A program made the position numbers and the translations under genes. From assembly GCA_964276015.1 (NCBI GenBank), contig CAXYDO010000009.1:60738-124737 (forward strand): DNA of 64,000 bases, read 5' to 3'. The notes beneath the pieces were generated by a model. It was given only the letters and a program-made list of their open reading frames with translations. It made no database searches and had not been told where the DNA came from. This document shows, one piece after another, positions 2,422 through 41,031 of this stretch; the stretch's first letter is position 1, and each line of letters begins with the position of its first letter. This DNA is from an uncultured Alphaproteobacteria bacterium. Its GTDB lineage: Bacteria > Pseudomonadota > Alphaproteobacteria > UBA6615.

Positions 2422-2446
2422 GTCGGCACCACCGCAGGCAAAGAAA

Positions 2447-2482
2447 AGCGGCAGCGCGAAGGGGCGCTGCCGCTTTCATTTT
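2447..2482. terminator. Bidirectional rho-independent terminator between convergent genes
   Basis: AGCGGCAGCGC-gaaggg-GCGCTGCCGCT, an 11-bp perfect stem. It is flanked by an A-run on the left and TTCATTTT on the right, so a U-tract is available on both strands. Confidence 0.6.
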
Positions 2483-2524
2483 GTACCGGGGCCAAAACCG
2501 CCCCTCCAGGCATTGAAACGCCGG

Positions 2525-3709: not shown

Positions 3710-3911
3710 TGGGTTGGCTGTCCGGACAAATCAGTACACCGGCAGGACATAAGAGAATTGAGGAGAGGCCATATTCGACCTGCCATCGTCTTTGTGAGGA
3801 CAGATATTGAAATCGTTCTACCGCCAGCCTCGGCCCCGTAGAAACCGTCACTAATCGTCCCCATATAGAGGGCGCGTTCAACACTTACACTTCGCGTGAC
3901 AGGACAGACCC

Positions 3912-5996: not shown

Positions 5997-6071
5997 CCGG
6001 AGAATTGACTCCGGGCCCGTTGCGCGGCACGAACATACCCAACGAAATGATAAAATCACGGGGGGGTATGG

Positions 6072-6947
6072 ATGGTGGGTGACGAGCTTGGAATGATTGG
6101 GCTGGGAAAGATGGGCTTGAGCCTGTCGCAACAGATGGTCGCTGATGGCCACACCGTCTGTGGCTACGATATTGACCCCGCGCGGATGCAGATGCTGGCA
6201 GATGCAGGTGGCACGCCTGTGGCAAACGCCCGGGAAGTCGCTGAAAACAGCGACATCACCTTCTCGATCCTACTCAAGCCCGAACATATCGAAGAAAACC
6301 TGTTCGGGCCGAACGGCATCGACAAGGCCGGAAAGACCGGATTGATCCATGTCGAGATGAGCACCATGCCGCCGGCCTACAGCAAGGAGCTGGCGGTGAA
6401 ATTGGCCGGATCGGGCATTGATATGCTCGACGCGCCGATTTCCGGATCCACACCCCAGGTCGACGCACGCACCATCACCTTCATGGTGGGCGGTAGCGAC
6501 ATGGCCTACGCCCGGGTGCAGCCGATCATCACGCCCCTGTCTGCCGATGCGACCCATACCGGGCCGTCAGGCAGTGGTGGGGTGATGAAGGTCGTCACCA
6601 ATATGTATGTGAATGCCAGCACGGCCCTGATTGCCGAAATGCTCCTCACAGGTGAGAAAGCGGGACTGTCCCAGGAGGTCATGCGTCATTGTTTACCGAA
6701 AGGTTCCGTGCGCGGCGCGATGCTCGATATGAGCCTGGACCCGGTGTTTAAACGGGATTTCACGGCGCGCGGTGCGGTCGAAATCTTCGTCAAGGATATG
6801 GGGATTGCCATCGATCTGGCGAAGGATAACGGCATCGAGTTGCAAGTTGTTCCTGCCGCGCGGGCCATGTTCCAGAAAGCCGAAGCCGCGGGCTGGGGCA
6901 AGGACGACGCGACCCGGGTGCTCGAAGTCTATGAGGGGAAGGCCTGA
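6072..6947 (+). CDS. NAD(P)-dependent 3-hydroxyisobutyrate/6-phosphogluconate dehydrogenase-like oxidoreductase
   Basis: N-terminal MIGLGKMGLSLSQQM Rossmann motif; 291 aa. The start may instead be the internal Met at 6093. Confidence 0.8.
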   Translation: MVGDELGMIGLGKMGLSLSQQMVADGHTVCGYDIDPARMQMLADAGGTPVANAREVAENSDITFSILLKPEHIEENLFGPNGIDKAGKTGLIHVEMSTMPPAYSKELAVKLAGSGIDMLDAPISGSTPQVDARTITFMVGGSDMAYARVQPIITPLSADATHTGPSGSGGVMKVVTNMYVNASTALIAEMLLTGEKAGLSQEVMRHCLPKGSVRGAMLDMSLDPVFKRDFTARGAVEIFVKDMGIAIDLAKDNGIELQVVPAARAMFQKAEAAGWGKDDATRVLEVYEGKA

Positions 6948-6954
6948 GGCAGAC

Positions 6955-7992
6955 ATGACAAATTATACGATCTGCGTTTTGCCGGGAGATGGCATCGGGC
7001 CCGAAGTGATCAATTGCGCCCGCCGAGTTCTCGATACGCTGACAGTGCGGGGTAGACCGGGCTTCACTTATGATGTGCATAAGGCTGGCTATGACCTGTT
7101 TCTGGAAACCGGTCATTCCATGCCCGACAACGTTCTGGTGGCCGCGAAGGCCGCGGACGCGGTACTGCTCGGCGCGATGAATGTGGCGCAGATCCCACCC
7201 CAGGGCGGTGATCCTCTTGGGGGCCTTCGGATCGGGCTTGAAGTCAGCGCCAGCGTCCGCCCGTCCCGCACCATTCCCGGCATTCCGTCCCCGGCGGCCG
7301 ATATTGACTGCGTGGTCGTACGTGAGGTGACCGAGGGGCTTTATTCCCGCGACGAATATATGGGGGACGATGATTCCGCCTATGCAGTCCGCATCATCAC
7401 AAGGGACGCTTCGACCAAGACCGCGCGGATGGCCTTTGCTCAGGCCATTGCCCGCCAGCAGGCATCGGGAAAACCGGCGCGGGTCACCGCCGTGCACAAG
7501 GTCGGGGTCCTCAAGCTGAGTGACGGGCTATTCCTGGAAGCATGCGCGGCTGTGGCAGAAGAATTCCCGGACATCGAGTATGAGACCCGTAATATCGACG
7601 CCTGCGCCATGGAAATGGTGCGCGAACCGGGCGAATTTGATGTGATCCTGGCGACCAATGCCTTTGGCGATATCCTTTCCGATGTTGCCGCAGGGCTGGC
7701 CGCGGGGCTGGGCCTGGCCGCATCGGCCTGTATTGGTGATCGCTGGGCTTATTTCGAGCCGGTGCACGGCACAGCGCCTGATATTGCCGGGAAAGGCATC
7801 GCCAACCCGTGCGCCACGATCCTGAGCGTGGCGATGATGCTGCGCTATCTGGGCGAAGATTTGGGCGCGGATGCGGTCGAACATGCTGTGAATGCGGTTC
7901 TCGCCGATGGCGCCGTGCGGACCGGTGATCTGGGCGGGTCGGCAACAAGCGCCGAAATGACCGATGCGATCCTTAGCCAATTGAACCCGTAG
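6955..7992 (+). CDS. Isocitrate/isopropylmalate dehydrogenase family protein (tartrate/3-IPM dehydrogenase-like)
   Basis: ATG 6955 gives MTNYTICVLPGDGIGPEVI...; NAFGDILSD motif. The ORF-track 5' extension overlaps the upstream gene. Confidence 0.85.
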   Translation: MTNYTICVLPGDGIGPEVINCARRVLDTLTVRGRPGFTYDVHKAGYDLFLETGHSMPDNVLVAAKAADAVLLGAMNVAQIPPQGGDPLGGLRIGLEVSASVRPSRTIPGIPSPAADIDCVVVREVTEGLYSRDEYMGDDDSAYAVRIITRDASTKTARMAFAQAIARQQASGKPARVTAVHKVGVLKLSDGLFLEACAAVAEEFPDIEYETRNIDACAMEMVREPGEFDVILATNAFGDILSDVAAGLAAGLGLAASACIGDRWAYFEPVHGTAPDIAGKGIANPCATILSVAMMLRYLGEDLGADAVEHAVNAVLADGAVRTGDLGGSATSAEMTDAILSQLNP

Positions 7993-8024
7993 CAGTAACC
8001 TTTCGATCAACGGAGAATATTGTC

Positions 8025-8876
8025 GTGGCCATCATCACGGAAGACATCGAGATATTTCACCACGGCGACAAGCCGATGATTATTCGTTTGATCCACCCAG
8101 AAGGAGGCGCGCCTTGTCCGGCGATTGTGGATTTGCATGGCGGCGGCTGGGGCAAAGGACACCCGAGCGAATGCACGACGCGGGGTGAAGTGTTCGCCGA
8201 GAACGGGATGGCGTCAGCGGCGCTGGATTTCCGTCAGGCCGCCGACCGGTATCCATCATCCCTGGAAGATATCAACTATGCGATCCGCTGGCTGAAAGTG
8301 AACGCCGCGGAGCTCAACATTGACCCGGCGCGTATCGGTTTGCTCGGCCAGTCGAGCGGCGGCCATCTGGCGATGCTGTCTGCGATGCGCCCGAACGATC
8401 CGCGCTACGCGGCATTGGAGCTGCCAGGGGACGCCCCTGACGTGGATGCGTCCGTGTGCTGTGTGGGCATGATGTGGCCCGTGATCAATCCCCTGTCGCG
8501 CTACCGCCGTGTGGTCGGCTTGCTCGCGGCAGGTGATCCGCCCGCCTGGGTAGGTGATCTGGAGCAGCGTCACGACACCTATTGGGTGACCGAGGACAAT
8601 ATGGAAGAGGGAAACCCGATGCTGGCTTTGGAGCGCGGCGAGGATCTGGTGATCCTGCCGTCGATCTGGATGCAGGGGCAGGTGGATCCGGTGCATGACT
8701 ATCGGGATCCGGGGTCACCCCTCGATCTCAACGAGCCCGAGCGCTTCGTTGAGAATTACCGTAAGTGGGGTGGGGCGATGAGCATCTATCATGTGGAACA
8801 GGCGAACCGATCCGACCCGGCGTTGCTGGGCCCGATGGTCGAGTTTTTCAGAACCAACCTCGTCGTACCAAAGTAG
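8025..8876 (+). CDS. Alpha/beta hydrolase (esterase/lipase fold-3 like)
   Basis: HGGGW oxyanion motif and GQSSGGHLA nucleophile elbow. Confidence 0.75.
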   Translation: MAIITEDIEIFHHGDKPMIIRLIHPEGGAPCPAIVDLHGGGWGKGHPSECTTRGEVFAENGMASAALDFRQAADRYPSSLEDINYAIRWLKVNAAELNIDPARIGLLGQSSGGHLAMLSAMRPNDPRYAALELPGDAPDVDASVCCVGMMWPVINPLSRYRRVVGLLAAGDPPAWVGDLEQRHDTYWVTEDNMEEGNPMLALERGEDLVILPSIWMQGQVDPVHDYRDPGSPLDLNEPERFVENYRKWGGAMSIYHVEQANRSDPALLGPMVEFFRTNLVVPK

Positions 8877-9170
8877 CTATTCGATCCCTTCGACGAACCG
8901 AAGATCGCGGATCACACCGCCATCGAGTGCGACCAGGGCGGCCTGATAATCCGGGCCGTCATGAGTGGCGATAGCAGCTTCGAGAGAATCGAACAGAATG
9001 ATGGTCGTCCGTTCCAGGACGCCGGCTTCGTAGACTTTCGCGGCGGCCCCCCGGGTCAGGAATGTGCCGCCACCCTTGGCGATCGCCGGTCCGGCGAGTT
9101 CGATATAGGCGGCAAATTTGTCGGCGTCGTCGATCGCGCGGTAGGCGGCGACCCAATATGCTTTTGCCAT
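8877..9170 (-). CDS. DUF1330 domain protein
   Basis: 97 aa, MAKAYWVAAYRAIDDADKFAAYIELAGPAI..., a typical DUF1330 N-terminus (from memory). Confidence 0.65.
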   Translation of the reverse strand: MAKAYWVAAYRAIDDADKFAAYIELAGPAIAKGGGTFLTRGAAAKVYEAGVLERTTIILFDSLEAAIATHDGPDYQAALVALDGGVIRDLRFVEGIE

Positions 9171-9210
9171 GATGTTCTCCTGAAAAAACTGTGAAAACAG
9201 CTATTTGTAC

Positions 9211-10020
9211 CTAGATAGAGGCTTCGGCCTTGTCGAGGAACGCCTGTACGGTCGTGTTCCATTTCTCGGGATGGCGTCGATAAGAATAGTGCCCGCCATC
9301 ATCGAAGAACTGCACTTGCGACCCCGGGATAGCCGCGTGCAGGTCCTTCGCGAAATAGTAGGGGATTGTCGCGTCATCCATGGTGCCGATGATCAGGGCA
9401 GGCTTGTCGATGCCGAAGATTTCGCTGGTCCGATCATGGGCGAGCATCATGTCGAGGCGCGCAGCGAGTATTTCGACAGAGCCAATCGTCTCAAGCGCCC
9501 GGCGCTCCAGTTCCATGACGGCGTCGAAATTGTTGCGAAACTGATCGGCGCCCGAAGTGAACATGCTCGAGACCTTCACATACTCTTCCGGGCCGTAGGA
9601 TTCCGCGATCCGTTTGCGGGTGAGCGCGACCCGGGTGATGAACTCGTCGGCCGTGACCCAGGTGTTATTGAAGATGCAGGCGCGAACCCGGTCCGGGTGG
9701 TCGAGGGCCAGGTTCTGCAGGATGCATCCGCCCGTCGATGTGCCCACGATATGGGCTTTCTCGATGCCAAGCGTGTCCATCAGCGCGATGACGTCGTCGG
9801 CGATAGCCTGGGTCGAATAGGCCCCGGGACCGCTGGGTTTGTCGCTTTCCCCGGTGCCGCGGTGGTCGAAGGTGACAGCGCGATAACGCTGAGCGAAGTG
9901 GTCCAGCTGGAACGACCAGGCGTCATAAAGACCGACAAGGCCGGGGATGAAGATGAAGGCTTCCCCCGTTCCCGCGTCAGCGATGTTCAGGGTGATGTGT
10001 CCAATATCGATACGGGCCAT
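9211..10020 (-). CDS. Alpha/beta hydrolase
   Basis: ATG 10020 gives MARIDIGHITLNIADAGTGEAFIFIPG...FDHRGTGESD...HIVGTSTGG (GxSxG). It starts 5 nt after the stop of the upstream gene. Confidence 0.8.
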   Translation of the reverse strand: MARIDIGHITLNIADAGTGEAFIFIPGLVGLYDAWSFQLDHFAQRYRAVTFDHRGTGESDKPSGPGAYSTQAIADDVIALMDTLGIEKAHIVGTSTGGCILQNLALDHPDRVRACIFNNTWVTADEFITRVALTRKRIAESYGPEEYVKVSSMFTSGADQFRNNFDAVMELERRALETIGSVEILAARLDMMLAHDRTSEIFGIDKPALIIGTMDDATIPYYFAKDLHAAIPGSQVQFFDDGGHYSYRRHPEKWNTTVQAFLDKAEASI

Positions 10021-10024
10021 GGGG

Positions 10025-10624
10025 CTAGTCCTTGTCGAAAGAGATGGTGCTGGCGATTTCGAGCATCGGTTCCTCGAGGGGTATGCGGAGACCGTCATTG
10101 AGGCTGTTCAGCAGGCCCATCGTTGCGGCCACGATGGTGACCTCAACGCGTTCCTGATCGGTTGTATGGGCGACAAACATGTCGGCCACATGTGGCGGAA
10201 TTGTACCGGCATCGATCGTCAACGCCTCCGCATAGGCCAGGATTGCGCGTTCCTTTTTGCTGAAGGAAACGTGAGAGAGATAATCGTGCATGTTGTTGAT
10301 TTTCTCTTCTGCGACACCCTGGCTCATCATGACACGAACCTGATGGGCTGAGCAGTAGAGGCACGCATTGATGTTGGAAACCTTGTGGCGGATCAACGCC
10401 TTCAGGGGCTTGGGCAGCCCGCCCTGATCCCAGACATCATCGAGAAACTGGCGCATTGTGGCGCCCAGCTCGGGGGAGTTGGCCATCGCGCGCACATTGT
10501 TTGCGGTCATGCCGACCCGCTTGGCGACCCGTGTTGCGGATTTTTGAAAAGCCGGTGAGAAATCCTCATCGCCCACCAGTGGTACCAGGCAACCATGTCC
10601 GGTTGCGGGCTGAATATTGTCCAT
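10025..10624 (-). CDS. Carboxymuconolactone decarboxylase / AhpD-like family protein
   Basis: ATG 10624 preceded by GGAGG; CLYCSAH CxxC-type motif; about 199 aa. Confidence 0.7.
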   Translation of the reverse strand: MDNIQPATGHGCLVPLVGDEDFSPAFQKSATRVAKRVGMTANNVRAMANSPELGATMRQFLDDVWDQGGLPKPLKALIRHKVSNINACLYCSAHQVRVMMSQGVAEEKINNMHDYLSHVSFSKKERAILAYAEALTIDAGTIPPHVADMFVAHTTDQERVEVTIVAATMGLLNSLNDGLRIPLEEPMLEIASTISFDKD

Positions 10625-10751
10625 GTTTTCCTCCCAAGTTCTGGAGGTCATAAGCGAAATTCCTGGCGTGATGTCAATCCGGTGTCTTTCGTGAACCGGC
10701 GCGCCATAATGGACCTCTACCTGTGGCTGATGATTTGCCGGAGTTCTCCTG

Positions 10752-20716: not shown

Positions 20717-21853
20717 ATGAATGATACTGGCGCGGCTTCCTGGCCGCATATTCTCTCCCCGTTCCGTCTGGGTTCACTCGACCTGCCCAACCGTTCCGTT
20801 GTGGCCCCGATGACCCGGATCAGCGCGGACGTGGATGGCGTGCCGACCCCGCAGATGGCCGAACACTACGCGGCGTTCGCCCGGGGCGGTTTTGGTCTGA
20901 TCATCACCGAGGGCACCCACCCCGACACGGCCCAAAGTCAGGGCTATCTTGACCAGCCCGGGATCGCGACACCGGCTCAGGTCGAGGGCTGGTGCCAAGT
21001 CGTCGATGCGGTGCACAGGGCGGGCGGGCGTATTGCTCTCCAGCTCATGCATGCCGGCGCGCTGGTTCAGGACAATCGCTACACAGGCGAGACACTCGCC
21101 CCCTCAGCGATTCAGCCCGCTGGCAATATGGCCGCACGTTACTATGGCGATGGTCCGTTTCTGATGCCGCGGGCCATGACCGGTGATGAGATCACAGCGG
21201 CGGTGGAGTCGTTTGGATCGGCGGCGGCGAATGCCATGGAGGCCGGCTTCGACGGGGTCGAGATCCACGGGGCCAATGGTTATTTGCCGGTTCAGTTCCT
21301 GACCCCGGAGGCCAACACCCGCACGGACGAATATGGCGGGTCCCTCGAGAACCGCCTGCGATTCCATCGTGAAATCATGGCCGCCGTGGTGCGTGGCGTG
21401 GCGGGCAGGGGGCTCGCAGGAATGCGGCTGTCTCAAAGTCGCTCGAGCGATTTTACCTATAAATGGAGCGGTGGCGTCGACGACGCGCGCACTATCTTTG
21501 GTGCGATGGCTGCCGAAGGCGCGGATTTTCTCCATGTCAGCACCCATCAGGGTCTGGGGGAGGAGTTCGGCACGAGCCGTACCCTGGCAGGACTGGCACG
21601 GGATTTCACCGATTTGCCCGTCATCGCCTGCGGCAAATTGGAAACCCCGGACAATGCCGAAGCGATATTGAGCGGGGGCGAAGCCGATCTGGTCGCGATT
21701 GCCCGCGGCGCGATTGGTGATCCGTCCTGGCCGCAAAAACTGGCGGATGGTGTAGATCCCGTCACTTTTGATCCAGAGATGATCAGCCCGTTCGCGACTC
21801 TCAATGCCACCGCCCAATGGCGTGCGGCCAACGGCGTGATGTTTGCGGACTGA
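20717..21853 (+). CDS. NADH:flavin oxidoreductase (Old Yellow Enzyme family)
   Basis: ATG 20717; ...LPNRSVVAPMTRISA...GFDGVEIHGANGYL... typical OYE motifs. Confidence 0.85.
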   Translation: MNDTGAASWPHILSPFRLGSLDLPNRSVVAPMTRISADVDGVPTPQMAEHYAAFARGGFGLIITEGTHPDTAQSQGYLDQPGIATPAQVEGWCQVVDAVHRAGGRIALQLMHAGALVQDNRYTGETLAPSAIQPAGNMAARYYGDGPFLMPRAMTGDEITAAVESFGSAAANAMEAGFDGVEIHGANGYLPVQFLTPEANTRTDEYGGSLENRLRFHREIMAAVVRGVAGRGLAGMRLSQSRSSDFTYKWSGGVDDARTIFGAMAAEGADFLHVSTHQGLGEEFGTSRTLAGLARDFTDLPVIACGKLETPDNAEAILSGGEADLVAIARGAIGDPSWPQKLADGVDPVTFDPEMISPFATLNATAQWRAANGVMFAD

Positions 21854-21908
21854 GAAATTTTCGGTCTCCAACCGGACATTGTCGGAAAATAAACGACCAT
21901 TATTGCGC

Positions 21909-21939
21909 TTGACCTTCCGGTTACTAGAAGGTGTAGGAA
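21909..21939 (+). promoter_or_regulatory. MerR/CueR-type promoter-operator (19-bp spacer) upstream of the cytochrome c gene
   Basis: TTGACC(21909-21914)-19 nt-TAGGAA(21934-21939). The spacer holds the dyad ACCTTCC-GGTTACT-AGAAGGT (7-7-7). This closely resembles my recollection of the E. coli copA CueR site, TTGACCTTCCCCTTGCTGGAAGGTTTAACCT. Confidence 0.5.
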
Positions 21940-21971
21940 ATGATCTGCAATTGGTGAGCAGGTACAGGTAT

Positions 21972-22445
21972 ATGTCCAAACGTAGTCTGGTGATAATCGT
22001 TTTCGTGATCGTGATAGTTGCTGCGGGTATCTATCTTGTGATTGGAAAACCGACTGCCGGGGCTACGCTTTCAGCGGATTCTTCAAATGCGAAACTCGTG
22101 GCGATGGGGCGACAAGTATATGCGTCCCAATGCGCGGCTTGCCACGGTGCAAATCTTGAAGGACAGGAAAAATGGCGCGAGCGCAAGGCTGACGGCAAGC
22201 TTCCGGCTCCCCCCCATAACGCGTCAGGCCATACTTGGCATCATGACGATCTGACCCTGTTCAACCTTACGAAATTTGGATTAGCCGCGATCGTCGGGCA
22301 ACCCGTAGAGACGGATATGCCAGTTTACGAAGGAAAACTTTCGGACGAGGAAATCTGGGCGGTGCTCGCCTATATCAAGTCGCGCTGGCCCGAGAAAATT
22401 CAGCAGCGGCAGGAAAACCTCAACGGACGCGCCAAAGGTTCCTGA
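21972..22445 (+). CDS. Membrane-anchored c-type cytochrome
   Basis: ATG 21972 gives MSKRSLVIIVFVIVIVAAGIYLVIG (N-terminal anchor); CAACHG heme-binding motif; 157 aa. Confidence 0.8.
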   Translation: MSKRSLVIIVFVIVIVAAGIYLVIGKPTAGATLSADSSNAKLVAMGRQVYASQCAACHGANLEGQEKWRERKADGKLPAPPHNASGHTWHHDDLTLFNLTKFGLAAIVGQPVETDMPVYEGKLSDEEIWAVLAYIKSRWPEKIQQRQENLNGRAKGS

Positions 22446-22601
22446 CCATTGTGCACTGCATTTTCACTAGTCCCGGAAGTCCGGTTGGTCTTTGGCGTCA
22501 AGCCGGTTCAACTGTCTGACCAGCTCGGATCATGACGAGGTTGAGTTTGCGCAACGACCTGATCAACAGCACTTTTCCAGGAACAGCGACGCTGTGGATA
22601 G

Positions 22602-22763
22602 CTGTCGCTGTCGATTCGAACAATCGAAGCAAGGCTGAAGGCTTGGGAAAGCTGGTTTGGCGAGATCCCTTCGAGAGGCGAATGGAAAAATCTCGCGCAG
22701 CAGATCGGCGTTAGTCCGGAGGCCCTGTACAGGGAATTGGCAAAGCGGAAGCGCCCGGGCTGA
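22602..22763 (+). pseudogene. C-terminal HTH remnant of a Crp/Fnr-like regulator
   Basis: A frame without a start codon reads ...IRTIEARLKAWESWFGEIPSRGEWKNLAQQIGVSPEALYRELAKRKRPG then stops. Upstream sequence only makes sense in other frames. The listed ORF 22532..22714 is out of frame with this. Confidence 0.35.
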
Positions 22764-22826
22764 AGTCGGAGAGCGGACGCCGCACAGTAAAGATACTTGC
22801 CTGTTGCCCGGCTGACTTCGTGGTGT

Positions 22827-23666
22827 TTAGTAAAGCACCAAAGCGCGCATCTCGATGCTTTCGCGGATCGCCGCGTCGGGCGGCGTGTTCGGATCGTCGA
22901 ACGCGGTATGCGCGGTAAAGCGCACGCCGGCTGAGGCGTCCGTGTCGAAGACCTTGAACACCAGCGCCTCGTCGCGCGTCATGTGCGGGAACCAGAACCA
23001 GCGGTGCGCCGGATTGTACGAGATGTGATAGGTCTCGCCGGTGCGATAGCGATACCGCCGCTCGTAAGGGATGAAGCCCTCTTCGGGAATCGTCCGGCCG
23101 TCACACAGCGCTAGGGGGTCTCGTTCGACACGCGGCGCGATCGACCGCCAGGTCTGGATAATAGCAAAGCGCCGCTTGAGCGCTGCCTCGGCCTCGGCTT
23201 CCGGCAGGAAGTCCCGTATGCGCTGAGGGGCTGAACGCTCCGTATAGTCGTTGTGCACCGAATAGACCGCTTTGCGCACCCGGTCGGCCTGCTGGCGTGC
23301 CTGCTCGGCGGTCCGCAGGGTGTGGTCGAACACCAACACGCGTTCTGCGCCGCCGCTATGAGCCTGGATCAGGGCTTCGGTTTCTTGATAGTAGACGGAA
23401 CGCACCTCGTCCTCATCGTAGAAATCCCTCACCTTCGTGTCTTGGTCGACGAAGGCGAAGCCGTGGGAGGGCAGGGTAAATTGCGCTGGGTCGCCGCGGC
23501 CATTTTGGATGGGCACGAGGTGTTTTTGGTAGGCGGGCTTGTGGGCGAGATGTTCCATCTCTGGCCAGTCGAGGTAGCGCACCGCCGGGATGCCGTCTTC
23601 GACGATGTAGTCGAGTTCGGCTTCGACATGGTCAAGATCGGGGGTGAGTTCGGCGGTCTGGGCCAT
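22827..23666 (-). CDS. CmcJ/NvfI-like family oxidoreductase
   Basis: 279 aa; LVFDHTLR, VHNDYT, WRSI...DPLALCD and HRWFWFPHM...VFKVFD match my memory of the CmcJ (7-alpha-cephem-methoxylase P8-related) family. Confidence 0.65.
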   Translation of the reverse strand: MAQTAELTPDLDHVEAELDYIVEDGIPAVRYLDWPEMEHLAHKPAYQKHLVPIQNGRGDPAQFTLPSHGFAFVDQDTKVRDFYDEDEVRSVYYQETEALIQAHSGGAERVLVFDHTLRTAEQARQQADRVRKAVYSVHNDYTERSAPQRIRDFLPEAEAEAALKRRFAIIQTWRSIAPRVERDPLALCDGRTIPEEGFIPYERRYRYRTGETYHISYNPAHRWFWFPHMTRDEALVFKVFDTDASAGVRFTAHTAFDDPNTPPDAAIRESIEMRALVLY

Positions 23667-23774
23667 GGGTCGGTTCCTCCGTGGGGCGTTCGCCCCGCTT
23701 CGCGTCGATTGTCTTGGAGGCTAGGCTGATGGCCAATTCGCGGTCAAGCTTGACCGATATACTGAGAAAAAATT

Positions 23775-23864
23775 TGGCGGAGGGAGAGAGATTCGAACTC
23801 TCGATACCCTTGCAGGTATACTAGTTTTCGAGACTAGCGCATTCAACCACTCTGCCACCCCTCC
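23775..23864 (-). tRNA. tRNA-Ser (anticodon CGA)
   Basis: Minus strand: GGAGGGG-TG-GCA-GAGTGGTTGAA-TGC-G-CTAGT-CTCGAAA-ACTAG-[long variable arm TATACCTGCAAGGGTATC]-GAGAG-TTCGAAT-CTCTC-TCCCTCC-G-CCA. The cloverleaf folds by hand, with discriminator G and an encoded CCA. Confidence 0.9.
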
Positions 23865-23943
23865 GACGGGATGTTTATACTTATTTTCAGGACAAATGGA
23901 ACTCGTATCTCACCGACCCTATGAGGTCGTGTTTCGGTTACCC

Positions 23944-24013
23944 GTTAAGACACAAAAAGGTTGTGAGGTTTTGACCCCCCATCCGTATTTTTTTCCCAGT
24001 TAAGACACAAAAA
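23944..24013. repeat. Two direct copies of GTTAAGACACAAAAA, 55 nt apart
   Basis: 23944..23958 and 23999..24013, identical 15-mers, 80-150 nt from the 5' end of the tRNA gene. Confidence 0.7.
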
Positions 24014-24081
24014 AAACCCCAGTTTTAGGGGGGGTCTTCGATATATCTCCAAGGGACGTTATTGGAGTTATAGATTAGGTT

Positions 24082-24333
24082 TTATTTTCCAGTTTTGACG
24101 GGGGGGCAATCCTCCTCAAACGCAAAGTAGTCTGCGTACCCACCCATTTCCCAACTAGTTCCCTTCGGTAGTCCCAGTTTCTTGTCTATCCCTGCGAGGT
24201 CAGCAAAGGTTCCTGTATCTCCAAGTTTGGAAATCTCCTCATTCACCAGTTTTGCGGTTGCGTCATATCCACCAGACATTCGTTTCCAACTTCGTAGGAT
24301 TGAGATTTCCTCATCCAACTGACTTGCGACCAT
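24082..24333 (-). CDS. Hypothetical small protein, paralog A (83 aa)
   Basis: AAGGAG RBS 6 nt upstream of the ATG. MVASQLDEEISILRSWKRMSGGYDATAKLVNEEISKLGDTGTFADLAGIDKKLGLPKGTSWEMGGYADYFAFEEDCPPVKTGK. I do not recognise a family. Confidence 0.6.
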   Translation of the reverse strand: MVASQLDEEISILRSWKRMSGGYDATAKLVNEEISKLGDTGTFADLAGIDKKLGLPKGTSWEMGGYADYFAFEEDCPPVKTGK

Positions 24334-24373
24334 CGGTTCTCCTTATTTTTAGATTTGTAAGTGTCTCGTTGGA

Positions 24374-24465
24374 TTAGACCCACTCGACACCTCACTCAGG
24401 CAACTTTCTCTGACCCTTCTCGACCCCAACGCAAAAGACCCCTCAGCATGGCGTCTGAGAGGTCT
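24374..24465 (-). promoter_or_regulatory. Module copy 1: hairpin terminator plus promoter-like conserved block
   Basis: Minus strand: AGACCTCTCAG-acgccatg-CTGAGGGGTCT-TTTGCGTTGGGGTCGAGAAGGGTCAGAGAAAGTTGCCTGAGTGAGGTGTCGAGTGGGTCTAA. An 11-bp stem with 1 mismatch, followed by a T-run. Confidence 0.55.
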
Positions 24466-24646
24466 GTATTGGTGTTATATCCGAGGGATGTCCGAGTGTG
24501 ACCTCAGAGAAACATATGACGTGAGGTCTTATTTCTGTTGCTCAGACGGTCTGGATGATTTTTGGTGCAAATCTCCCCTCATGATATCGGGGTGGTGCGT
24601 CTGTGCGCTCCTCTGCGGTCGTTTGGCAGGAAAGCTGGCTTACCGC

Positions 24647-25069
24647 TTATCCCACTAACCAAGATATTGGTATTACTAGAAATCCCATGAGGCAACAAAT
24701 TAGCCAAAAACCTAGTCCCTGAAAAATAGACCAATACAGTTCTTTAATTCTTGCGGGAAAACAACTCTTATCCTGAATTGTTTTAATTTTGGGCGACAAC
24801 CCAAACCCTGATACCAAAAGAACCACACAAGACGCCCCAAAAATCCAAATTCCTACACCAAAAAAGAAAGCAGTTAGGACAAATTGAAAGATATCAAACA
24901 CTAGATTTATTAATGATACAGATTTCATTGAAGAGAAATTTTGAAAATAGAATATTACAACGAGAAAAAAAGGTAGGATATTCTTAGATACTACTAGCCA
25001 TCTTGGCTGCCGAATAATTTCCGGCTTATAATCTATAAAATATTTGATAAGAAAACGCTTTAAGAACAT
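24647..25069 (-). CDS. Hypothetical polytopic membrane protein (140 aa), extremely AT-rich
   Basis: About 4 hydrophobic helices (ILPFFLVVIFYF; FVLTAFFFGVGIWIFGASCVVLLVSGF; GLGFWLICCLMGFLVIPISWLV). Weak RBS. No recognised family. Confidence 0.5.
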   Translation of the reverse strand: MFLKRFLIKYFIDYKPEIIRQPRWLVVSKNILPFFLVVIFYFQNFSSMKSVSLINLVFDIFQFVLTAFFFGVGIWIFGASCVVLLVSGFGLSPKIKTIQDKSCFPARIKELYWSIFQGLGFWLICCLMGFLVIPISWLVG

Positions 25070-25147
25070 TAAATCCCATTAGATGAAGCCCTTAATACCG
25101 GCCATCAGAATCCCTTTCCAATTTTTTTATTACGTAATATTTTTAGC

Positions 25148-25173
25148 CACACATTCACGGGCAAGTTTCTGTG
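25148..25173. repeat. 26-nt repeat copy A (CACACATTCACGGGCAAGTTTCTGTG)
   Basis: Matches 27023..27048 at 21/26 positions in the same orientation. Ends are CACA...TGTG. Confidence 0.6.
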
Positions 25174-25221
25174 CGTCAGCGATTTGAGGGCGTGTTCATC
25201 GCTGGCCGTTAGTTGGCATTC

Positions 25222-25371
25222 TTAACGACATTTGAAGCCCGAATCATTTTCCTTGGCGACGCAGCTAATCGGAGGCTTTGAAGGCCACATCGATGCCTGA
25301 TCTAAATTATCACTACATCCTGACAGGGAAAGAAGTCCGATAGCGATGATGGTGGCGGTTAGGTTTCTCAT
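25222..25371 (-). CDS. Small lipoprotein (49 aa)
   Basis: MRNLTATIIAIGLLSLSGC, a signal peptide with an L-S-G-C lipobox; the mature part is about 30 aa with two more Cys. The 86-aa ORF-track version adds a non-coding-looking leader. Confidence 0.5.
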   Translation of the reverse strand: MRNLTATIIAIGLLSLSGCSDNLDQASMWPSKPPISCVAKENDSGFKCR

Positions 25372-25434
25372 GGGGGAAGTCTGACAGAGAACATTCCGAA
25401 TGGGTAGAGAGAATGGGTGACACCGTATGAAAGA

Positions 25435-25476
25435 CCCTCCAGTGGTGATCCAGGTCCCCCTCCAGTGGTGATCCAG
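25435..25476. repeat. Tandem 19-nt repeat CCCTCCAGTGGTGATCCAG x2 (period 23 nt) in the lipoprotein leader
   Basis: 25435..25453 and 25458..25476 are identical. The period is not a multiple of 3. Confidence 0.8.
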
Positions 25477-25494
25477 ATCCATTACCCCGCAGAC

Positions 25495-25584
25495 TTAGAC
25501 CCACTCGACACATTACCCAGGCACCTTTCCCTGACCCTTCTCGACCCCAACGCAAAACCCCCCAGCATGGTCAATGAGAGGTCT
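25495..25584 (-). promoter_or_regulatory. Module copy 3 (degenerate hairpin, conserved core)
   Basis: Minus strand: ...TTTTGCGTTGGGGTCGAGAAGGGTCAGGGAAAGGTGCCTGGGTAATGTGTCGAGTGGGTCTAAG. The hairpin arms carry about 4 mismatches. Confidence 0.45.
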
Positions 25585-25632
25585 GTATGGGTGTCGGTGG
25601 TGGGTATTGGGGGTGGTCGGGTGAGGTTCTCC

Positions 25633-25722
25633 TCAGGTGACCTTCTGAGCAACGAACTCTGACGGACCCTTACCCTTGGAACGTTTCACAACATACCCCT
25701 TCCAGTTTCGGGTAGGGGGTCC
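25633..25722 (-). pseudogene. Truncated duplicate of the C-terminus of the 93-aa protein
   Basis: Reads ...GPPTRNWKGYVVKRSKGKGPSEFVAQKVT then stop, against ...KGYVVKRSKGKGASGFVAQKVV then stop in 26194..26475. No start codon. Confidence 0.6.
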
Positions 25723-25789
25723 ATATTTCTCTCTAGGTTCAACCCTACTTTTGTAGGTTAGATTTTATCTCCCAGTTTTGACGGGGGGT

Positions 25790-26017
25790 CTAATCCTCCT
25801 CAAACGCAAAGTAGTCAGCATATCCCCCCATTTCCCAACTGGTTCCCTTCGGCAATCCCAGTTTCTTGTCTATCCCTGCGAGGTCTGCAAAGGTTCCCGC
25901 ATCCCCAAGTTTGGAAATCTCCTCATTCACCTTCCTTGCGGTTGCGTCATATCCACCAGACATTCGTTTCCAACTTCGTAGGATTGAGATTTCCTCATCC
26001 AACTGACTTGCGACCAT
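25790..26017 (-). CDS. Hypothetical small protein, paralog B (75 aa)
   Basis: Same RBS and leader as paralog A; 4 aa substitutions. It ends at a TAG where paralog A has TGC and reads on for 8 more codons. Confidence 0.6.
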   Translation of the reverse strand: MVASQLDEEISILRSWKRMSGGYDATARKVNEEISKLGDAGTFADLAGIDKKLGLPKGTSWEMGGYADYFAFEED

Positions 26018-26057
26018 CGGTTCTCCTTATTTTTAGATTTGTAAGTGTCTCGTTGGA

Positions 26058-26149
26058 TTAGACCCACTCGACACCTCACTCAGGCAACTTTCTCTGACCC
26101 TTCTCGACCCCAACGCAAAAGACCCCTCAGCATGGTGACTGAGAGGTCT
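26058..26149 (-). promoter_or_regulatory. Module copy 2
   Basis: Identical to copy 1 across the conserved block. The hairpin is 26120..26149, with 2 loop substitutions. Confidence 0.55.
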
Positions 26150-26193
26150 ATATGGGTCGGTGGTGGGTATTGGTTGGTCTGTGTGAGGTCTAA

Positions 26194-26475
26194 TCAGACA
26201 ACCTTCTGAGCAACGAACCCTGACGCACCCTTACCCTTAGACCTCTTGACGACATATCCCTTGGTGCCCAGACGAAAGGTCTTGTCGTCCTTGAACTGAC
26301 CCAGTGCGGCGACGAGTGCGTCTGCAACAGGGTCACGAACTTCCTTAGGGGTCTTGGACTGGGTTTTCATCCACTTACCGAATGCGTTCTCTGCGATGTC
26401 GTCACCGACACTCTTGCGGAGGGCATTGAGTTTGCGGACCTGACCTTTAGTCAGAGTGGAATGGTCGATGGTCAT
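26194..26475 (-). CDS. Hypothetical Lys-rich small protein (93 aa)
   Basis: ATG 26475 with GAAGGAA RBS. MTIDHSTLTKGQVRKLNALRKSVGDDIAENAFGKWMKTQSKTPKEVRDPVADALVAALGQFKDDKTFRLGTKGYVVKRSKGKGASGFVAQKVV. No recognised family. Confidence 0.6.
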   Translation of the reverse strand: MTIDHSTLTKGQVRKLNALRKSVGDDIAENAFGKWMKTQSKTPKEVRDPVADALVAALGQFKDDKTFRLGTKGYVVKRSKGKGASGFVAQKVV

Positions 26476-26594
26476 GGAAGTTCCTTCTTTGGATAGATGC
26501 GACATTGTATTTGATATTATAATTATAAAGCAGAATGTCTGAGTTCGATAGAGAAAATTAGGAGTGGGTGGTTCTGCACTCATGCCTCGCAGAC

Positions 26595-26675
26595 TTAGAC
26601 CCTCTCGATGGAACACTCTAAGAACCTTTCTGACCCCAACGCAAAAGACCCCTCAGCACGGTGACCGAGAGGTCT
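26595..26675 (-). promoter_or_regulatory. Module copy 4 (internal deletion, intact hairpin)
   Basis: Minus strand: AGACCTCTCGG-tcaccgtg-CTGAGGGGTCT-TTTGCGTTGGGGTCAGAAAGGTTCTTAGAGTGTTCCATCGAGAGGGTCTAAG. Confidence 0.5.
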
Positions 26676-26725
26676 TTATCGGTGTTATGTCTGAGGGATA
26701 ATCAGAAAGAGGACTAGGTGAAGTT

Positions 26726-26899
26726 TTACTCAGAATTTTTATCATCAATAAGTTTGTCTAATTTTAATATTACCAATTTGAACGACCCATATAAAATTAA
26801 TCCCAGACCAAAAATACCAAACCCTATTGATATAGCGATTTGTTGAAAAATAAATCCCCATCCAATAATCTTCAAAATATCTCCCGCTAAAAGGGTCAA
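26726..26899 (-). CDS. Possible small 2-TM protein (57 aa, TTG start) or C-terminal relic of a membrane protein
   Basis: LTLLAGDILKIIGWGFIFQQIAISIGFGIFGLGLILYGSFKLVILKLDKLIDDKNSE. No ATG and no RBS. Below the ORF-track length cutoff. Confidence 0.3.
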   Translation of the reverse strand: MTLLAGDILKIIGWGFIFQQIAISIGFGIFGLGLILYGSFKLVILKLDKLIDDKNSE

Positions 26900-26990
26900 G
26901 GAACTGCGTGATAGTTGAATGGGTGCGTCAGCAATCGCAAAGGAAATGGGGATTGGTAGAGCACCCGTATATCCGGCACTTGGGGCGTAG
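26895..26990 (+). pseudogene. Relic of a serine recombinase (resolvase/invertase) C-terminal HTH
   Basis: VKELRDS-[TGA]-MGASAIAKEMGIGRAPVYPALGA then stop. This resembles the resolvase-type HTH tail (..ELR..G.S...IAKE.GI.R..VYR.L). The catalytic domain is absent. Confidence 0.45.
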
Positions 26991-27022
26991 AGGTTCTACT
27001 CAACACCCTTTGTGTTTTTACG

Positions 27023-27048
27023 GACACATTTACGGGCAAGGTCTTGTG
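27023..27048. repeat. 26-nt repeat copy B (GACACATTTACGGGCAAGGTCTTGTG)
   Basis: See 25148..25173. It lies 33 nt downstream of the recombinase relic. Confidence 0.6.
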
Positions 27049-27069
27049 ATTTTTTAAGCTGAATCCTCT

Positions 27070-27372
27070 CTATTGAGACATTAGTGCCATCAATCCAGCA
27101 CCCAAGAAGAGAAGTCCAATAACAGAAAAAATAAGACTTAAATAACTTATTATTAATCCAGCGAGCGCCATCCCCGACCCTGTTTCAGCTCCCCCACTAC
27201 GCCTAATTTGGGACCTCGCTATATGCCCACATATGATTGCGGCAATTTGGGCAACAATTGGTATAATAAAGGTTGCAAGAACTCCAAGCAGCGATAGTAC
27301 CAAGGAGATAATCGACAATACATTTGTTTTGGGGGTGGTTAACCTGTGATCTAATATTTTATGTTCTGTCAT
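27070..27372 (-). CDS. Small membrane protein (DUF4190-like), 100 aa
   Basis: AAGGAAGAG RBS. Two long hydrophobic segments flank [26 protein letters not shown], a pattern I associate with DUF4190. Confidence 0.55.
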
Positions 27373-27551
27373 AACTCTTCCTTACCCAAACTCACCCTCA
27401 CACTTCTATGAAGCACGGCAATCGTCAAGCAGATGGTAGCGGGAACGGACCTGCATAAGATACAAGCGCAGAGTTTCTACCGCACGTGCTCACCTACCTG
27501 CAACCCGCAGTGGGTGTGAGATTATTACCTGAAAGTGGGTCCTTTCGGCGG

Positions 27552-27579
27552 TTGACACCGGCGGCTGGCGGCGTATAGT
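27552..27579 (+). promoter_or_regulatory. Sigma70-type promoter of rplU-rpmA
   Basis: TTGACA (27552-27557), 16 nt, TATAGT (27574-27579); about 120 nt upstream of the rplU ATG. Confidence 0.5.
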
Positions 27580-27701
27580 CCGCCCGCATTCGATGGATCG
27601 CTGGAGAAATTCGCGGTCCGCCTTGTTTTTGCTGGAACATTCGGCACTTTGAGCCCCTGCATTTGGGGGCGCATTGGCCGCGAATAGACGGATCCGGATT
27701 T

Positions 27702-39639: not shown

Positions 39640-40488
39640 TCAAGCAGTTGCGGCCCTGTCTTGATCGATGGATGTGTCACGGCCGATACGAATATTGAGA
39701 AACCAGCAAGCCAGCCGGGCCATCACATTGGTCATGCGTCCATGGGGAACGAACCCAATGGCTTTGAACATCAGCGTGATCGCCCGTTCCACATGGCGGG
39801 TTTTGTAATAGCCATATGCGCAGGACATATAAGCGCGGATACACCGTTTGCGATGATAGGGCTCGCCGCTGTTGTTGGCAGCGTAATAGGCATAGGCGAG
39901 TTCGTCGTCCTCGCTCTCCCCGATCCGGCTCAACCCCACCATGAGGCGTTTGATCCGGCCGATATTCTCGATATCCCGGTAACGCTCCATATGGGTGTAG
40001 AAAAGTTTGAAATGACGGATTTCGTCCTGGGCGATTTTCTCACAAATCAGACGTAACACCGGTTCGCCGCTGGCTTCGCGCAAAGCCGAGTAATAGGACG
40101 ATGTCCCCACTTCGACCATGCAGCGGGCGACGAGTTCCCCGCATTTTGTTCCGCGGACCGATTCCTCGGCGGCGACGGGAAGCTGAATTTTTTTAGAGAA
40201 ACTTGCGAACCGGGTCTCGAAGTCGAAATCCGGATCAGCCAGTTGCGCCCAGCGGGCCAGAGCCTTTCCGTGCTGGATTTCCTCGAATGACCACCGGCGT
40301 GCGGCATCCTGGAATTGGGGATCATCCTTGAACACGCTGCAAAGATATTCAGCGTAAATGCCGCCATTATACTCAACCAAGGCGGCTGCCTTGATGATGC
40401 GTAGCATATCAGCGTCGACCTTTGCCGGGTCGAACAGGTCCCACGGGATATCTTCCAGTGTCCAGTATTTGTTGCGATGTTCTTTCAT
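39640..40488 (-). CDS. Ferritin-like di-iron carboxylate protein (function unknown)
   Basis: 282 aa; two E-x-x-H motifs (FEEIQH and QDEIRH) spaced as in di-iron four-helix-bundle enzymes. Confidence 0.55.
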   Translation of the reverse strand: MKEHRNKYWTLEDIPWDLFDPAKVDADMLRIIKAAALVEYNGGIYAEYLCSVFKDDPQFQDAARRWSFEEIQHGKALARWAQLADPDFDFETRFASFSKKIQLPVAAEESVRGTKCGELVARCMVEVGTSSYYSALREASGEPVLRLICEKIAQDEIRHFKLFYTHMERYRDIENIGRIKRLMVGLSRIGESEDDELAYAYYAANNSGEPYHRKRCIRAYMSCAYGYYKTRHVERAITLMFKAIGFVPHGRMTNVMARLACWFLNIRIGRDTSIDQDRAATA

Positions 40489-40539
40489 GGCGCTTCTATT
40501 AACGAAAACCGGCGGGAATTATTGCCGAGGTCTTTATTA

Positions 40540-40567
40540 TATATAGTGCGCAATCCCCGTCGGTCAA
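40540..40567 (-). promoter_or_regulatory. Sigma70-type promoter for the ferritin-like gene
   Basis: Minus strand: TTGACC, 16 nt, TATATA(TAAT). Confidence 0.4.
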
Positions 40568-40608
40568 AACACGGTGTTGACAGGAAAAATAATTCTAACT
40601 ATTTGAAA

Positions 40609-41031
40609 TTATTGATAATCACTGCTGTCGAGAGATATCAGTTTCTCTCGTGCTGTGTCCGCACGTTGCTCGGCAAGGGCCCGATCCGAGGCATTTTCAC
40701 CGGAATCAGCCATATCATCGACCGCGTTCTGCAGGTCTTTCTCGACCTGATCACGATCGATCTCGTCGAGTGGGACAGCCTCTTCGGCCAGAACGGTGCA
40801 GCGTTCGCCCGTGACTTCGGCAAATCCGCCCGCGACGAAAATGCGGGATTTAACCGCACCACCCTCGAAAATATGGATGATGCCTGGTCGCACGCTCGAG
40901 ATCACAGGCGTATGCCCCGGGAGGACGCCAAAATCGCCTTCCGCGCCGGGAACCACCACCATCTCGACCTCTTCCGAAAGAAGTAGCTTCTCCGGTGAGA
41001 CCAGTTCGAACTGAACCGCGTTGTCTGCCAC
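40609..41031 (-). CDS. atpC: F0F1 ATP synthase subunit epsilon
   Basis: 140 aa; last gene of atpHAGDC. Confidence 0.93.
   Translation of the reverse strand: MADNAVQFELVSPEKLLLSEEVEMVVVPGAEGDFGVLPGHTPVISSVRPGIIHIFEGGAVKSRIFVAGGFAEVTGERCTVLAEEAVPLDEIDRDQVEKDLQNAVDDMADSGENASDRALAEQRADTAREKLISLDSSDYQ

Follow-up and report, generated by a model that had tools for sequence, protein, structure and literature searches.

A low-GC islet between tRNA-Ser(cga) and rplU in an uncultured alphaproteobacterium: a probable remnant of mobile-element cargo

In this study, we analysed a 64-kb window from contig CAXYDO010000009.1 of an uncultured alphaproteobacterium, in which a short AT-rich islet of small genes lies between the gene for tRNA-Ser(cga) and the promoter of rplU. 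The islet is the segment 23892-27442 (3,551 bp); positions given without a locus name are those of the window, and the 225 loci fetched for comparison carry numbers with the prefix L. The original prediction, made from the letters of the sequence, had placed an AT-rich foreign islet here, and G+C content (GC), GC at third codon positions (GC3), tetranucleotide composition and empty sites in relatives all agree with it. The islet is foreign DNA inserted between tRNA-Ser and rplU.

The insertion site and its empty counterparts

The islet is flanked by housekeeping genes of the host, with tRNA-Ser on the left and rplU (start at 27702) on the right, the latter heading the plus-strand order rplU-rpmA-obg-proB. 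We took rplU as the synteny anchor because homologs of the cmcJ-like gene on the other side of the tRNA lie in different neighbourhoods. Empty sites were searched for with RplU as the query, using one genome per species. The divergent pair of tRNA-Ser(cga) on the minus strand and rplU on the plus strand was found in more than 25 alphaproteobacterial genomes, including Rhodospirillales-like metagenome-assembled genomes (MAGs), Inquilinus, Brucella, Mesorhizobium and Hoeflea, and in nearly all of them tRNA-Ser lies approximately 175-500 bp upstream of rplU, which proves the insertion. The closest relatives, L024 and L023, have RplU proteins 83% and 75% identical to that of the window and spacers of 291 and 285 bp, respectively. 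Both edges of the window copy were aligned to these two empty sites, and the junctions were set at 23891|23892 and 27442|27443. Direct reading of the sequences showed that the host spacer rebuilt from the two window flanks has the same length as the L023 spacer; the insertion is therefore clean and measures 3,551 bp. The boundaries are narrower than the predicted 23865-27530, because approximately 27 bp of host spacer (23865-23891) are kept 5' of tRNA-Ser in the alignment to L023 and L024, and the GC content does not collapse immediately past the tRNA as had been described. The rplU promoter, 110 bp past the right junction, is host DNA and is conserved in the empty sites. An independent assembly from Fram Strait (L007) reproduces positions 24453-27700 at 99.8% identity.

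The GC content of the islet is 0.455, compared with 0.596 in the rest of the window. In 1-kb steps, GC stays between 0.535 and 0.636 across the 64 kb except at 24-28 kb, where it is 0.43-0.51. The 300-bp windows inside the islet lie on average 4.1 standard deviations below the outside mean (mean z -4.1), 47% of them are below the lowest outside window, and the minimum of 0.323 (z -8) falls within the open reading frame (ORF) for a 140-aa protein, whose low GC had been noticed before and is 33% over the whole ORF. The tetranucleotide L1 distance between the islet and the rest is 0.647, while size-matched background segments gave 0.157 +/- 0.013 with a maximum of 0.194. The GC3 values of the islet ORFs range from 0.26 to 0.63, and those of host genes from 0.61 to 0.78. 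For the cmcJ-like gene, a GC content of 62.6% was measured instead of the approximately 70% counted by hand in the original prediction.

The short sequences GGAACTCGTAT and GGACCTGCAT at the two junctions, picked out by eye as a possible target-site duplication or att repeat, were rejected: a match of this kind was obtained in 498 of 500 shuffles. The islet has split a widely conserved tRNA-Ser/rplU promoter region with neither promoter being destroyed.

The same spacer is enlarged in two of the other genomes. In L040 (Rhizobium alvei, 4816-10000), it is 5.2 kb long and carries genes for a DUF4357 protein and an RTX/cadherin-repeat protein, and in L031 (Hyphobacterium, 8130-10000), it is 1.9 kb long. 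Both insertions are independent and unrelated. Because unrelated accessory genes occupy it in Rhizobium alvei, the tRNA-Ser/rplU spacer tolerates insertions.

Intact genes and gene relics

The features of the islet are listed in Table 1 from the tRNA side to the rplU side. All of the small minus-strand ORFs of the original prediction are present, and their hydropathy, isoelectric point (pI) and lipobox fit the descriptions given there. Between them lie the relics of other genes, namely the 3' end of a resolvase gene, the C-termini of two Sel1 proteins, a signal-peptide stub, the 3' end of a second 93-aa gene and a 90-aa gene unit whose gene is deleted. The islet is thus made up of small genes, some intact and others reduced to relics, and has the architecture of decaying mobile-element cargo.

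Table 1. Features of the islet and its borders, with the basis of each assignment
Feature	Position	Strand	Basis or remarks
tRNA-Ser(cga), host gene, left bound	23775-23864	-	ARAGORN (sole tRNA in the window); Rfam tRNA, 57.5 bits
Whole inserted segment	23892-27442		Empty-site alignment, rebuilt spacer length, composition
Non-coding terminal tail, downstream of the 83-aa gene	23892-24081	-	Repeat families D8, D10, D13; terminator scan
83-aa acidic protein gene	24082-24333	-	ORF list, family search
Junction module M1	24364-24500	-	Hairpin AGACCTCTCAG-N8-CTGAGGGGTCT + TTTTGCG, then conserved leader
Relic of 90-aa gene unit	24480-24534	-	Type-b module flank and upstream cagagaaacatatgacgtgaggtct kept, gene deleted
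140-aa basic membrane protein, about 4 transmembrane (TM) segments	24647-25069	-	GC 0.33, GC3 0.29
C-terminus relic of Sel1-repeat secreted protein (..ADAQKLARECVAKNIT*)	25125-25190	-	Repeat D9, copy 1
49-aa lipoprotein (lipobox LSGC)	25222-25371	-	Leader at 25372-25420
23-bp tandem repeat, CCCTCCAGTGGTGATCCAGGTCC x2	25435-25480	-	Upstream of lipoprotein leader
Junction module M2	25485-25620	-	Hairpin with 2-nt deletion
Relic of second 93-aa gene, last 21 codons	25639-25701	-	tblastn, 90% identity over 21 aa; repeat D5
75-aa paralog of the 83-aa gene	25790-26017	-	Tail at 25702-25789
Junction module M3	26048-26173	-	Same fusion to 83/75-aa gene 5' untranslated region (UTR) as M1
93-aa basic protein (pI 10.2)	26194-26475	-	Large family
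Junction module M4, upstream of the 93-aa gene	26585-26699	-	11-nt deletion in leader part
Possible 57-aa ORF with 2 TM segments	26726-26899	-	TTG start, no Shine-Dalgarno, GC 0.29
Small serine recombinase (resolvase) 3' relic	26892-26990	+	Helix-turn-helix (HTH) end only; catalytic domain absent
Second Sel1 C-terminus relic (..SQDLARKCVRKNTKGVE*)	26990-27050	-	Repeat D9; convergent with resolvase relic
100-aa DUF4190 membrane protein	27070-27372	-	GC 0.41; good Shine-Dalgarno
Signal-peptide coding stub (..ATICLTIAVL..), MRKLTAT secreted-protein family	27390-27442	-	5' end cut exactly at right junction
rplU promoter TTGACA-16-TATAGT	27552-27579	+	Host DNA

Pieces of the 90-aa unit match more than 35 loci, and in L104 both of them flank an intact 90-aa gene. 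The first Sel1 relic was translated and compared with the L103 Sel1 proteins ending in ..AQKLARECVRKKYKGC, and its DNA has matches in more than 20 loci. The predicted HTH relic of about 30 codons from a serine recombinase was recovered by tblastn as a 29-aa match (E 8.5e-6; 26895-26981 on the plus strand; residues approximately 150-178), with 87-95% DNA identity to the resolvase 3' ends of about 18 loci. The convergent pairing of a Sel1 end with a resolvase is kept in L165, L182, L183 and L225. Approximately 30 loci match the signal-peptide stub, all ending at 27442, and the stub matches L103 8912-8955. The terminal tail contains C-run/TAAAACTGG motifs, two copies of GTTAAGACACAAAAA and terminator-like hairpins, and its part 24019-24081 resembles the tails in L016 and L225. 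The islet has also been reshuffled internally. A duplication, predicted as 395 bp, pairs 24068-24473 with 25751-26157 at 93.6% identity over 407 aligned columns and takes in the 83-aa and 75-aa genes.

Searches of PADLOC (nothing below E 0.04), PHROGs, NCBIfam and Pfam with the islet ORFs gave nothing significant besides DUF4190, and weak signal-peptide matches were the only ones in PHROGs. The predicted DUF4190-like protein matched PF13828 with 62.5 bits (gathering cut-off 35, E 3.1e-17, residues 19-85). Neither the islet DNA nor the 93-aa protein matched any of 50,697 annotated phage and 72,556 plasmid records. No recombinase beyond the relic was found in the window by tblastn with four tyrosine-integrase and resolvase queries or in the ORF list, and the same searches together with PHROGs bear out the earlier statement that the islet has no integrase and no structural phage gene. 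Rfam at a permissive threshold returned the tRNA and chance matches overlapping it (E up to 1), and no structured RNA family on the islet.

The 93-aa protein belongs to a large alphaproteobacterial family whose members are approximately 95 aa long, with the consensus M..DE..LTKGQ.RKLNALRKS.GD.IA..AF.KWL...DPVA...LGR.GY..RR.RG. At E <= 1e-3, 1,656 clusters at 90% identity were found (351 representatives at 50% identity), and the top 120 are 80-96% identical and mostly on short contigs. Mobile arrays carry one subfamily, and a second, with more than 1,300 clusters, can sit in an ordinary chromosomal context (L222). The marine subfamily by itself counts more than 1,600 clusters at 90% identity; this very abundant family has so far gone unannotated. 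The AlphaFold model of the 93-aa protein (predicted local distance difference test score, pLDDT, 75.9) shows three helices and a C-terminal beta-hairpin, and no match was found in Pfam, PDB sequence, PDB fold or BFVD fold searches. Structure prediction, proposed with the original prediction, could thus be carried out for the 93-aa and 83-aa proteins and gave the former no fold neighbour in PDB or BFVD. The model of the 83-aa protein is of low confidence (pLDDT 54); an HTH-like motif, FADLAGIDKKLGLPKGTS, is an impression from its sequence.

The 83-aa family has 399 clusters and a canonical length of 75 aa. The earlier pairing of an 83-aa gene with a 75-aa paralog is real, but the 75-aa copy is the one of canonical length, and the 83-aa copy is a read-through variant of the usual stop codon. 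The exact 83-aa protein is on record from one contig only. In other loci, the 83-aa gene closes the element and is oriented divergently to a resolvase. The cluster of the 140-aa membrane protein has 13 members on contigs of up to approximately 3.6 kb, and the exact window sequence occurs on contigs of less than 2 kb only. By their still lower GC (0.33, 0.29 and 0.41, respectively), the 140-aa, 57-aa and DUF4190 ORFs look like further, more AT-rich acquisitions. It is doubtful that the 57-aa ORF is a real gene: no record has its exact sequence, and the region matches no fetched locus. The 49-aa lipoprotein has a conserved leader and an MRNLTAT start in common with a family of Sel1, MORN and trypsin secreted proteins, and it gave weak signal-peptide-type matches alone in PHROGs and NCBIfam. 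The tandem repeat upstream of its leader duplicates ACCACTGGAGGG, a leader variant found after many metagenome copies of the junction module described below. The intact ORFs (83/75 aa, 93 aa, DUF4190, 140 aa and lipoprotein) are probably accessory cargo forming no recognisable system. Most of the surviving ORFs may be envelope-located or resemble small nucleic acid-binding proteins, and they may still be expressed.

The junction module and related elements

Four copies of a junction module (M1-M4), as predicted, lie in the islet, all on the minus strand, and none occurs elsewhere in the 64 kb. On the sense strand, part A consists of the hairpin, TTTTGCG and approximately 30 nt, and part B of approximately 70 nt (GGTGCCTGRGTGWT..TCGAGKGGGTCTAAGTCTGCGGGGTATGGGGTCTGGA..), followed by one of two leader types. 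The total length is approximately 130 bp, and the copies are 80-95% identical; because of this length and identity, the module would provide portable homology. M1 and M3 were flagged by a terminator scan. RNAalifold on 106 copies predicted only an 11-bp terminator hairpin, with pairs kept in 90-95 of the 106 and a few compensatory changes. With a hairpin rich in G+C, a run of T after it in the sense orientation and conservation among the copies, part A has the features of a rho-independent terminator. We infer that part A is the terminator of the upstream gene and that part B is a shared leader or promoter of the downstream gene.

Several other readings of the module were considered and rejected. 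Fits to Caulobacter-type, sigma-54 and extracytoplasmic function (ECF) promoter consensus sequences were made by eye and were unconvincing, and a G-quadruplex of the module consensus is not present in the window copies. By eye, the two ends of the module resemble each other over a short inverted stretch (GACCCATAC / GTATGGGGTC), as in a miniature inverted-repeat transposable element, but target duplications are absent and the genes on both flanks are variable in all cases.

Scanning Joint Genome Institute (JGI) metagenomes with 21 nt of part B yielded 111 stretches, all marine and mostly contigs of 1-3 kb, in which the module is often at the contig end; the conserved inter-gene module breaks metagenome assemblies. 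Viral contigs gave 0 matches. In contigs with several copies, the module is always in direct orientation (four copies in the window, four in L184 and two in each of five contigs). Its neighbours are highly variable: the 44 modules with both neighbours called fall into 38 distinct pairs of neighbour families, and the next gene of the 93-aa family comes from 8 different families in 10 cases. Among the 111 loci, 38 carry a 93-aa gene and 38 carry Sel1 proteins, two resolvase types match 21 and 6 loci (overlap is possible, so that the total is up to 27), and tyrosine integrases gave 3 weak matches. The breakpoints of the module are not unique, with at least two 5' and at least two 3' positions, and approximately 10 copies are part B without the part A hairpin, five of which share the 5' edge GGTGCC. 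In the window, M1 is joined directly to the 5' UTR of the 83-aa gene, with the junction at GGGTCTAA|TCCAACGAG. Among the 225 loci, this fusion of M1 and M3 to the 83/75-aa genes was found in the window and L007 only, and in L016 and L225 its position is held by a resolvase with res-like repeats.

The most informative relative is L225, part of a 764-kb contig, which contains an apparently intact low-GC element of approximately 8.7 kb (1979-10745). It starts at tRNA-Arg(ccg) (1979-2055), and a repeat of approximately 52 nt of the 3' part of this tRNA lies at about 10,690-10,745. GC is 0.35-0.50 between the tRNA and the repeat and 0.55-0.68 outside. In order, the low-GC segment holds an inward-facing 429-aa integrase, a 90-aa gene with a module, a 93-aa gene with a module, further cargo and a third module, a 17-codon Sel1 stub by a resolvase, and the 83-aa homolog with its tail before attR. 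Read on the minus strand, the window has the same backbone order in degraded form: module, 93-aa gene, module, the pair of Sel1 end and resolvase end, and the terminal 83-aa gene with its tail.

Other loci show the same genes in related settings. In L016-L022 (a Rhodospirillaceae MAG and several metagenomes), 83-aa homologs are divergent from a 180-aa resolvase and lie beside a 438-aa tyrosine integrase. The Pfam match of the integrases of relatives (429 aa and 438 aa) is PF00589 only. The resolvase beside the 83-aa gene in L016 and L225 has res-like repeats of its own and a fixed position in the backbone. In L008, the 93-aa gene lies between two DUF6538/phage-integrase genes, and in L009-L012, it lies beside genes for Sel1 and trypsin-like secreted proteins. 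L103, an IMG/VR contig, encodes a VapE-exonuclease-PolA fusion, a DUF6456 protein, a caspase/FGE protein, MORN, trypsin and three Sel1 proteins with a common MRKLTAT signal peptide, a 93-aa homolog with 63% identity, an 83-aa homolog and a resolvase.

The L103 fusion protein (131-2740) has 869 aa and combines a VapE-like domain with a 3'-5' exonuclease and a family A DNA polymerase, a finding that points to autonomous replication or a phage-like nature in some members of the element family. In L104 (4662-5400; also in L105-L108), tRNA-Ser(tga) is followed by a gene with an ABM domain, after which the 3' half of the tRNA is partially repeated twice in succession, at about 5205-5270 and 5340-5400; this is a textbook tandem-integration scar. 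Module arrays and a 93-aa gene in two inverted copies flank it on both sides. In L009 (1274-1782; also in L010-L012), an inverted Sel1 fragment lies between direct copies of the leader CCATTC(C/T)GAATATTCTCTG(T/C)CAGA, and after the first of these come ATGAGAAAC and unrelated sequence. Inversion or recombination in the region of the leader or signal peptide may have left this pattern. Invertase-driven switching at this place was considered and rejected, as no matching inverted repeats were found.

Origin of the islet

In this study, we believe, with a probability of roughly 0.7, that the islet derives from the cargo region of low-GC integrative elements like that in L225, of which it is a rearranged remnant or fragment without a recombinase. 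The best explanation of the related loci is that this element family circulates in marine alphaproteobacteria and normally enters the 3' ends of tRNA genes by means of a tyrosine integrase. Within such elements, part A of the module would end the transcript of the upstream gene, and part B would serve the downstream gene as leader or promoter. Recombination at module copies would then shuffle, duplicate and delete genes, and this could produce both the reshuffled islet and the combinatorial gene neighbourhoods of the metagenomes.

Several observations weigh against this origin. The insert lies about 27 bp 5' of tRNA-Ser instead of in the tRNA 3' end, and neither a partial tRNA nor any other significant direct repeat flanks it; the window is therefore without the hallmarks of an L225-type integrase. 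The right junction cuts a coding region, and the host spacer is apparently intact; a simple history of integration followed by deletion does not easily fit this combination of a cut gene and an intact spacer. Entry into the spacer by illegitimate insertion of a fragment or by a secondary-site event is possible. The 127 bp of the tail at 23892-24018 match no other fetched locus, and the 140-aa, 57-aa and DUF4190 ORFs have no counterpart in the related loci fetched; for the 140-aa protein, tblastn also found no match in the 111 module loci. Because L007 ends inside M1 at 24453, the join from M1 through the 83-aa gene to tRNA-Ser is read from the window's contig alone. In addition, the promoter scan found no sigma-70-type promoter in the module on the minus strand, and for lack of such a consensus, the promoter role of part B is only inferred.

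Among known systems, the element family behind the remnant that we propose resembles the tycheposons and other tRNA-targeting islands in the way it works. Such islands are defined by a site-specific integrase that faces inwards, repeats of part of the tRNA, cargo and, optionally, replication genes (Hackl et al., bioRxiv 10.1101/2020.12.28.424599; PMC10872708). Small serine recombinases are among their recurrent genes, degenerate integrase-less fragments fill islands beside tRNAs (bioRxiv 10.1101/2020.12.28.424599), and tRNA-targeting elements build "additive" flexible genomic islands in marine bacteria (bioRxiv 10.1101/2020.12.28.424599; PMC10872708). Similarly, the relatives of the islet show integration into the 3' end of a tRNA gene that leaves a partial-tRNA repeat, with the tyrosine integrase at one end and facing inwards (L225), tandem partial copies of tRNA-Ser(tga) (L104), a VapE-primase/polymerase gene (L103), a recurrent small serine recombinase and cargo mostly of unknown function. 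In contrast, the window copy, which is placed 5' of the tRNA, is without an integrase (present in L225, L016-L022 and L008) and without the partial-tRNA arrangement of L225 and L104. The hosts of the islet family also differ in being high-GC alphaproteobacteria, and module-separated arrays of secreted-protein genes are not among the features described in the accessible text of the tycheposon paper. A further likeness is to multigene families of Sel1/MORN secreted proteins, whose 5' ends are kept alike by gene conversion: paralogs in L103, L009 and L184 share the leader and MRKLTAT, and what the window has of this family is a short lipoprotein with that start plus three stubs. The difference is that the window keeps almost only relics.

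Two alternatives read the modules as recombination sites. We consider it unlikely that they belong to a serine-recombinase cassette system, in which the genes between two modules are excised and inserted as units, integron-like with another enzyme and site, and of which the window would be an orphan array after loss of the recombinase. The 93-aa protein, as the commonest cassette (38 of the 111 module loci), could then be an accessory DNA-binding factor. The direct orientation in arrays, the 38 distinct neighbour pairs among 44, the up to 27 of 111 short module contigs that encode a resolvase against 3 weak tyrosine-integrase matches, and the hairpin-less copies with their common GGTGCC edge would suit such a system; the heterogeneous breakpoints do not, nor does the alignment show the dyad symmetry typical of serine-recombinase crossover sites. 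Moreover, the resolvase keeps a fixed backbone place with res-like repeats, as for an ordinary resolution or inversion function, and homologous recombination across 130-bp repeats explains the same pattern. Far less probable is an integron-type array without integrase (CALIN) with the modules as attC sites. Like such arrays, the islet family has small, mostly unknown genes in one orientation, divided by a conserved repeat of about 130 bp, with variable neighbours and poor assembly in metagenomes, where contigs fragment at the repeat, and the hairpin of M1 and M4 sits between the triplets AAC and GTT. However, the module is a terminator hairpin with a non-palindromic leader and folds into no long imperfect palindrome in the RNAalifold prediction, the AAC expected as R'' is missing in M2, M3 and most copies, and conservation runs about 95 nt past the GTT, where attC would end. 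No IntI-like gene was found in the window (tblastn with three tyrosine integrases) or beside the arrays in the 111 loci; the recombinases that accompany modules are of two kinds, a small one of the serine type and, at the end of the element, a tyrosine integrase of phage type.

The original prediction had compared the islet with prophage moron, superinfection-exclusion or small defence and anti-defence loci. A functional accessory locus of this kind, whose proteins are individually expressed and protect the cell or the element, seems to us slightly less likely again than the serine-recombinase cassettes. The AT-rich, foreign composition, the small genes, some of them membrane- or lipoprotein-like, the terminator-like hairpin at the end of each unit and the good Shine-Dalgarno sequences of intact ORFs (83/75 aa, 93 aa and DUF4190) are what such a locus would have, and the strong conservation of the 93-aa and 83-aa families over hundreds to thousands of clusters implies selection. 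Against it stand the absence of significant PADLOC, PHROGs and NCBIfam matches, including any homology to PHROGs of known function, and of a fold match for the 93-aa protein. There is no prophage around the islet and no match in annotated phage or plasmid records, approximately one third of the segment consists of gene relics, and the gene combination is found in no other fetched locus (L007 represents this very locus). A reading as a defence or phage-exclusion system of recognisable type is not supported. It is also improbable, more so than a functional locus, that the left part is an assembly artefact at the 407-bp repeat and that the real element is larger, perhaps with an integrase, or that the junction between the 83-aa gene and the tRNA is misplaced. 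An exact match of 69 nt between M1 and M3 (repeat D3), the end of the independent contig L007 within M1 and the record of the exact 83-aa protein from a single contig would all fit an artefact; yet the repeat copies differ by 6%, enough for an assembler to separate them, and both host flanks are expected mutual neighbours in relatives, so that something was inserted exactly here, whatever its full size.

For the remnant of an L225-like element, the description of the islet as the best candidate for something undescribed holds at the level of protein families, as its genes are uncharacterised; it does not hold for a self-contained system, since the islet is a relic patchwork of elements of known type. 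For this genome, the result is modest, the islet adding a few envelope proteins and small basic or acidic proteins. The arrays of modules and 93-aa cassettes, often with small serine recombinases, are a more interesting lead than the islet itself and possibly represent a new variant. The element family appears to trade genes for secreted proteins combinatorially. If the shuffling is site-specific, this would be a new cassette mechanism; if it is homologous recombination at terminator/leader repeats, it would be a simple and general route to diversify the surface and secreted proteins of marine bacteria.

Some minor observations concern the surroundings of the islet. A second, milder GC dip (0.49-0.56) at 21800-22830 spans a cytochrome c gene (21843-22445) and about 380 bp without an ORF of more than 60 aa, and it lies before the cmcJ-like gene. 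The lowest GC outside the islet in a 300-bp window, 0.467, is at about 40400-40700. The cmcJ-like gene (PF27522 YDMC; 22827-23666, minus strand) adjoins tRNA-Ser. Its homologs with at least 90% identity (L001-L006) have another neighbourhood in other MAGs, with GMC oxidoreductase, MerF and ABC transporter genes, and share just about 35 nt of upstream sequence (23714-23748) with the window. The cmcJ-like side of the locus may therefore also be variable.

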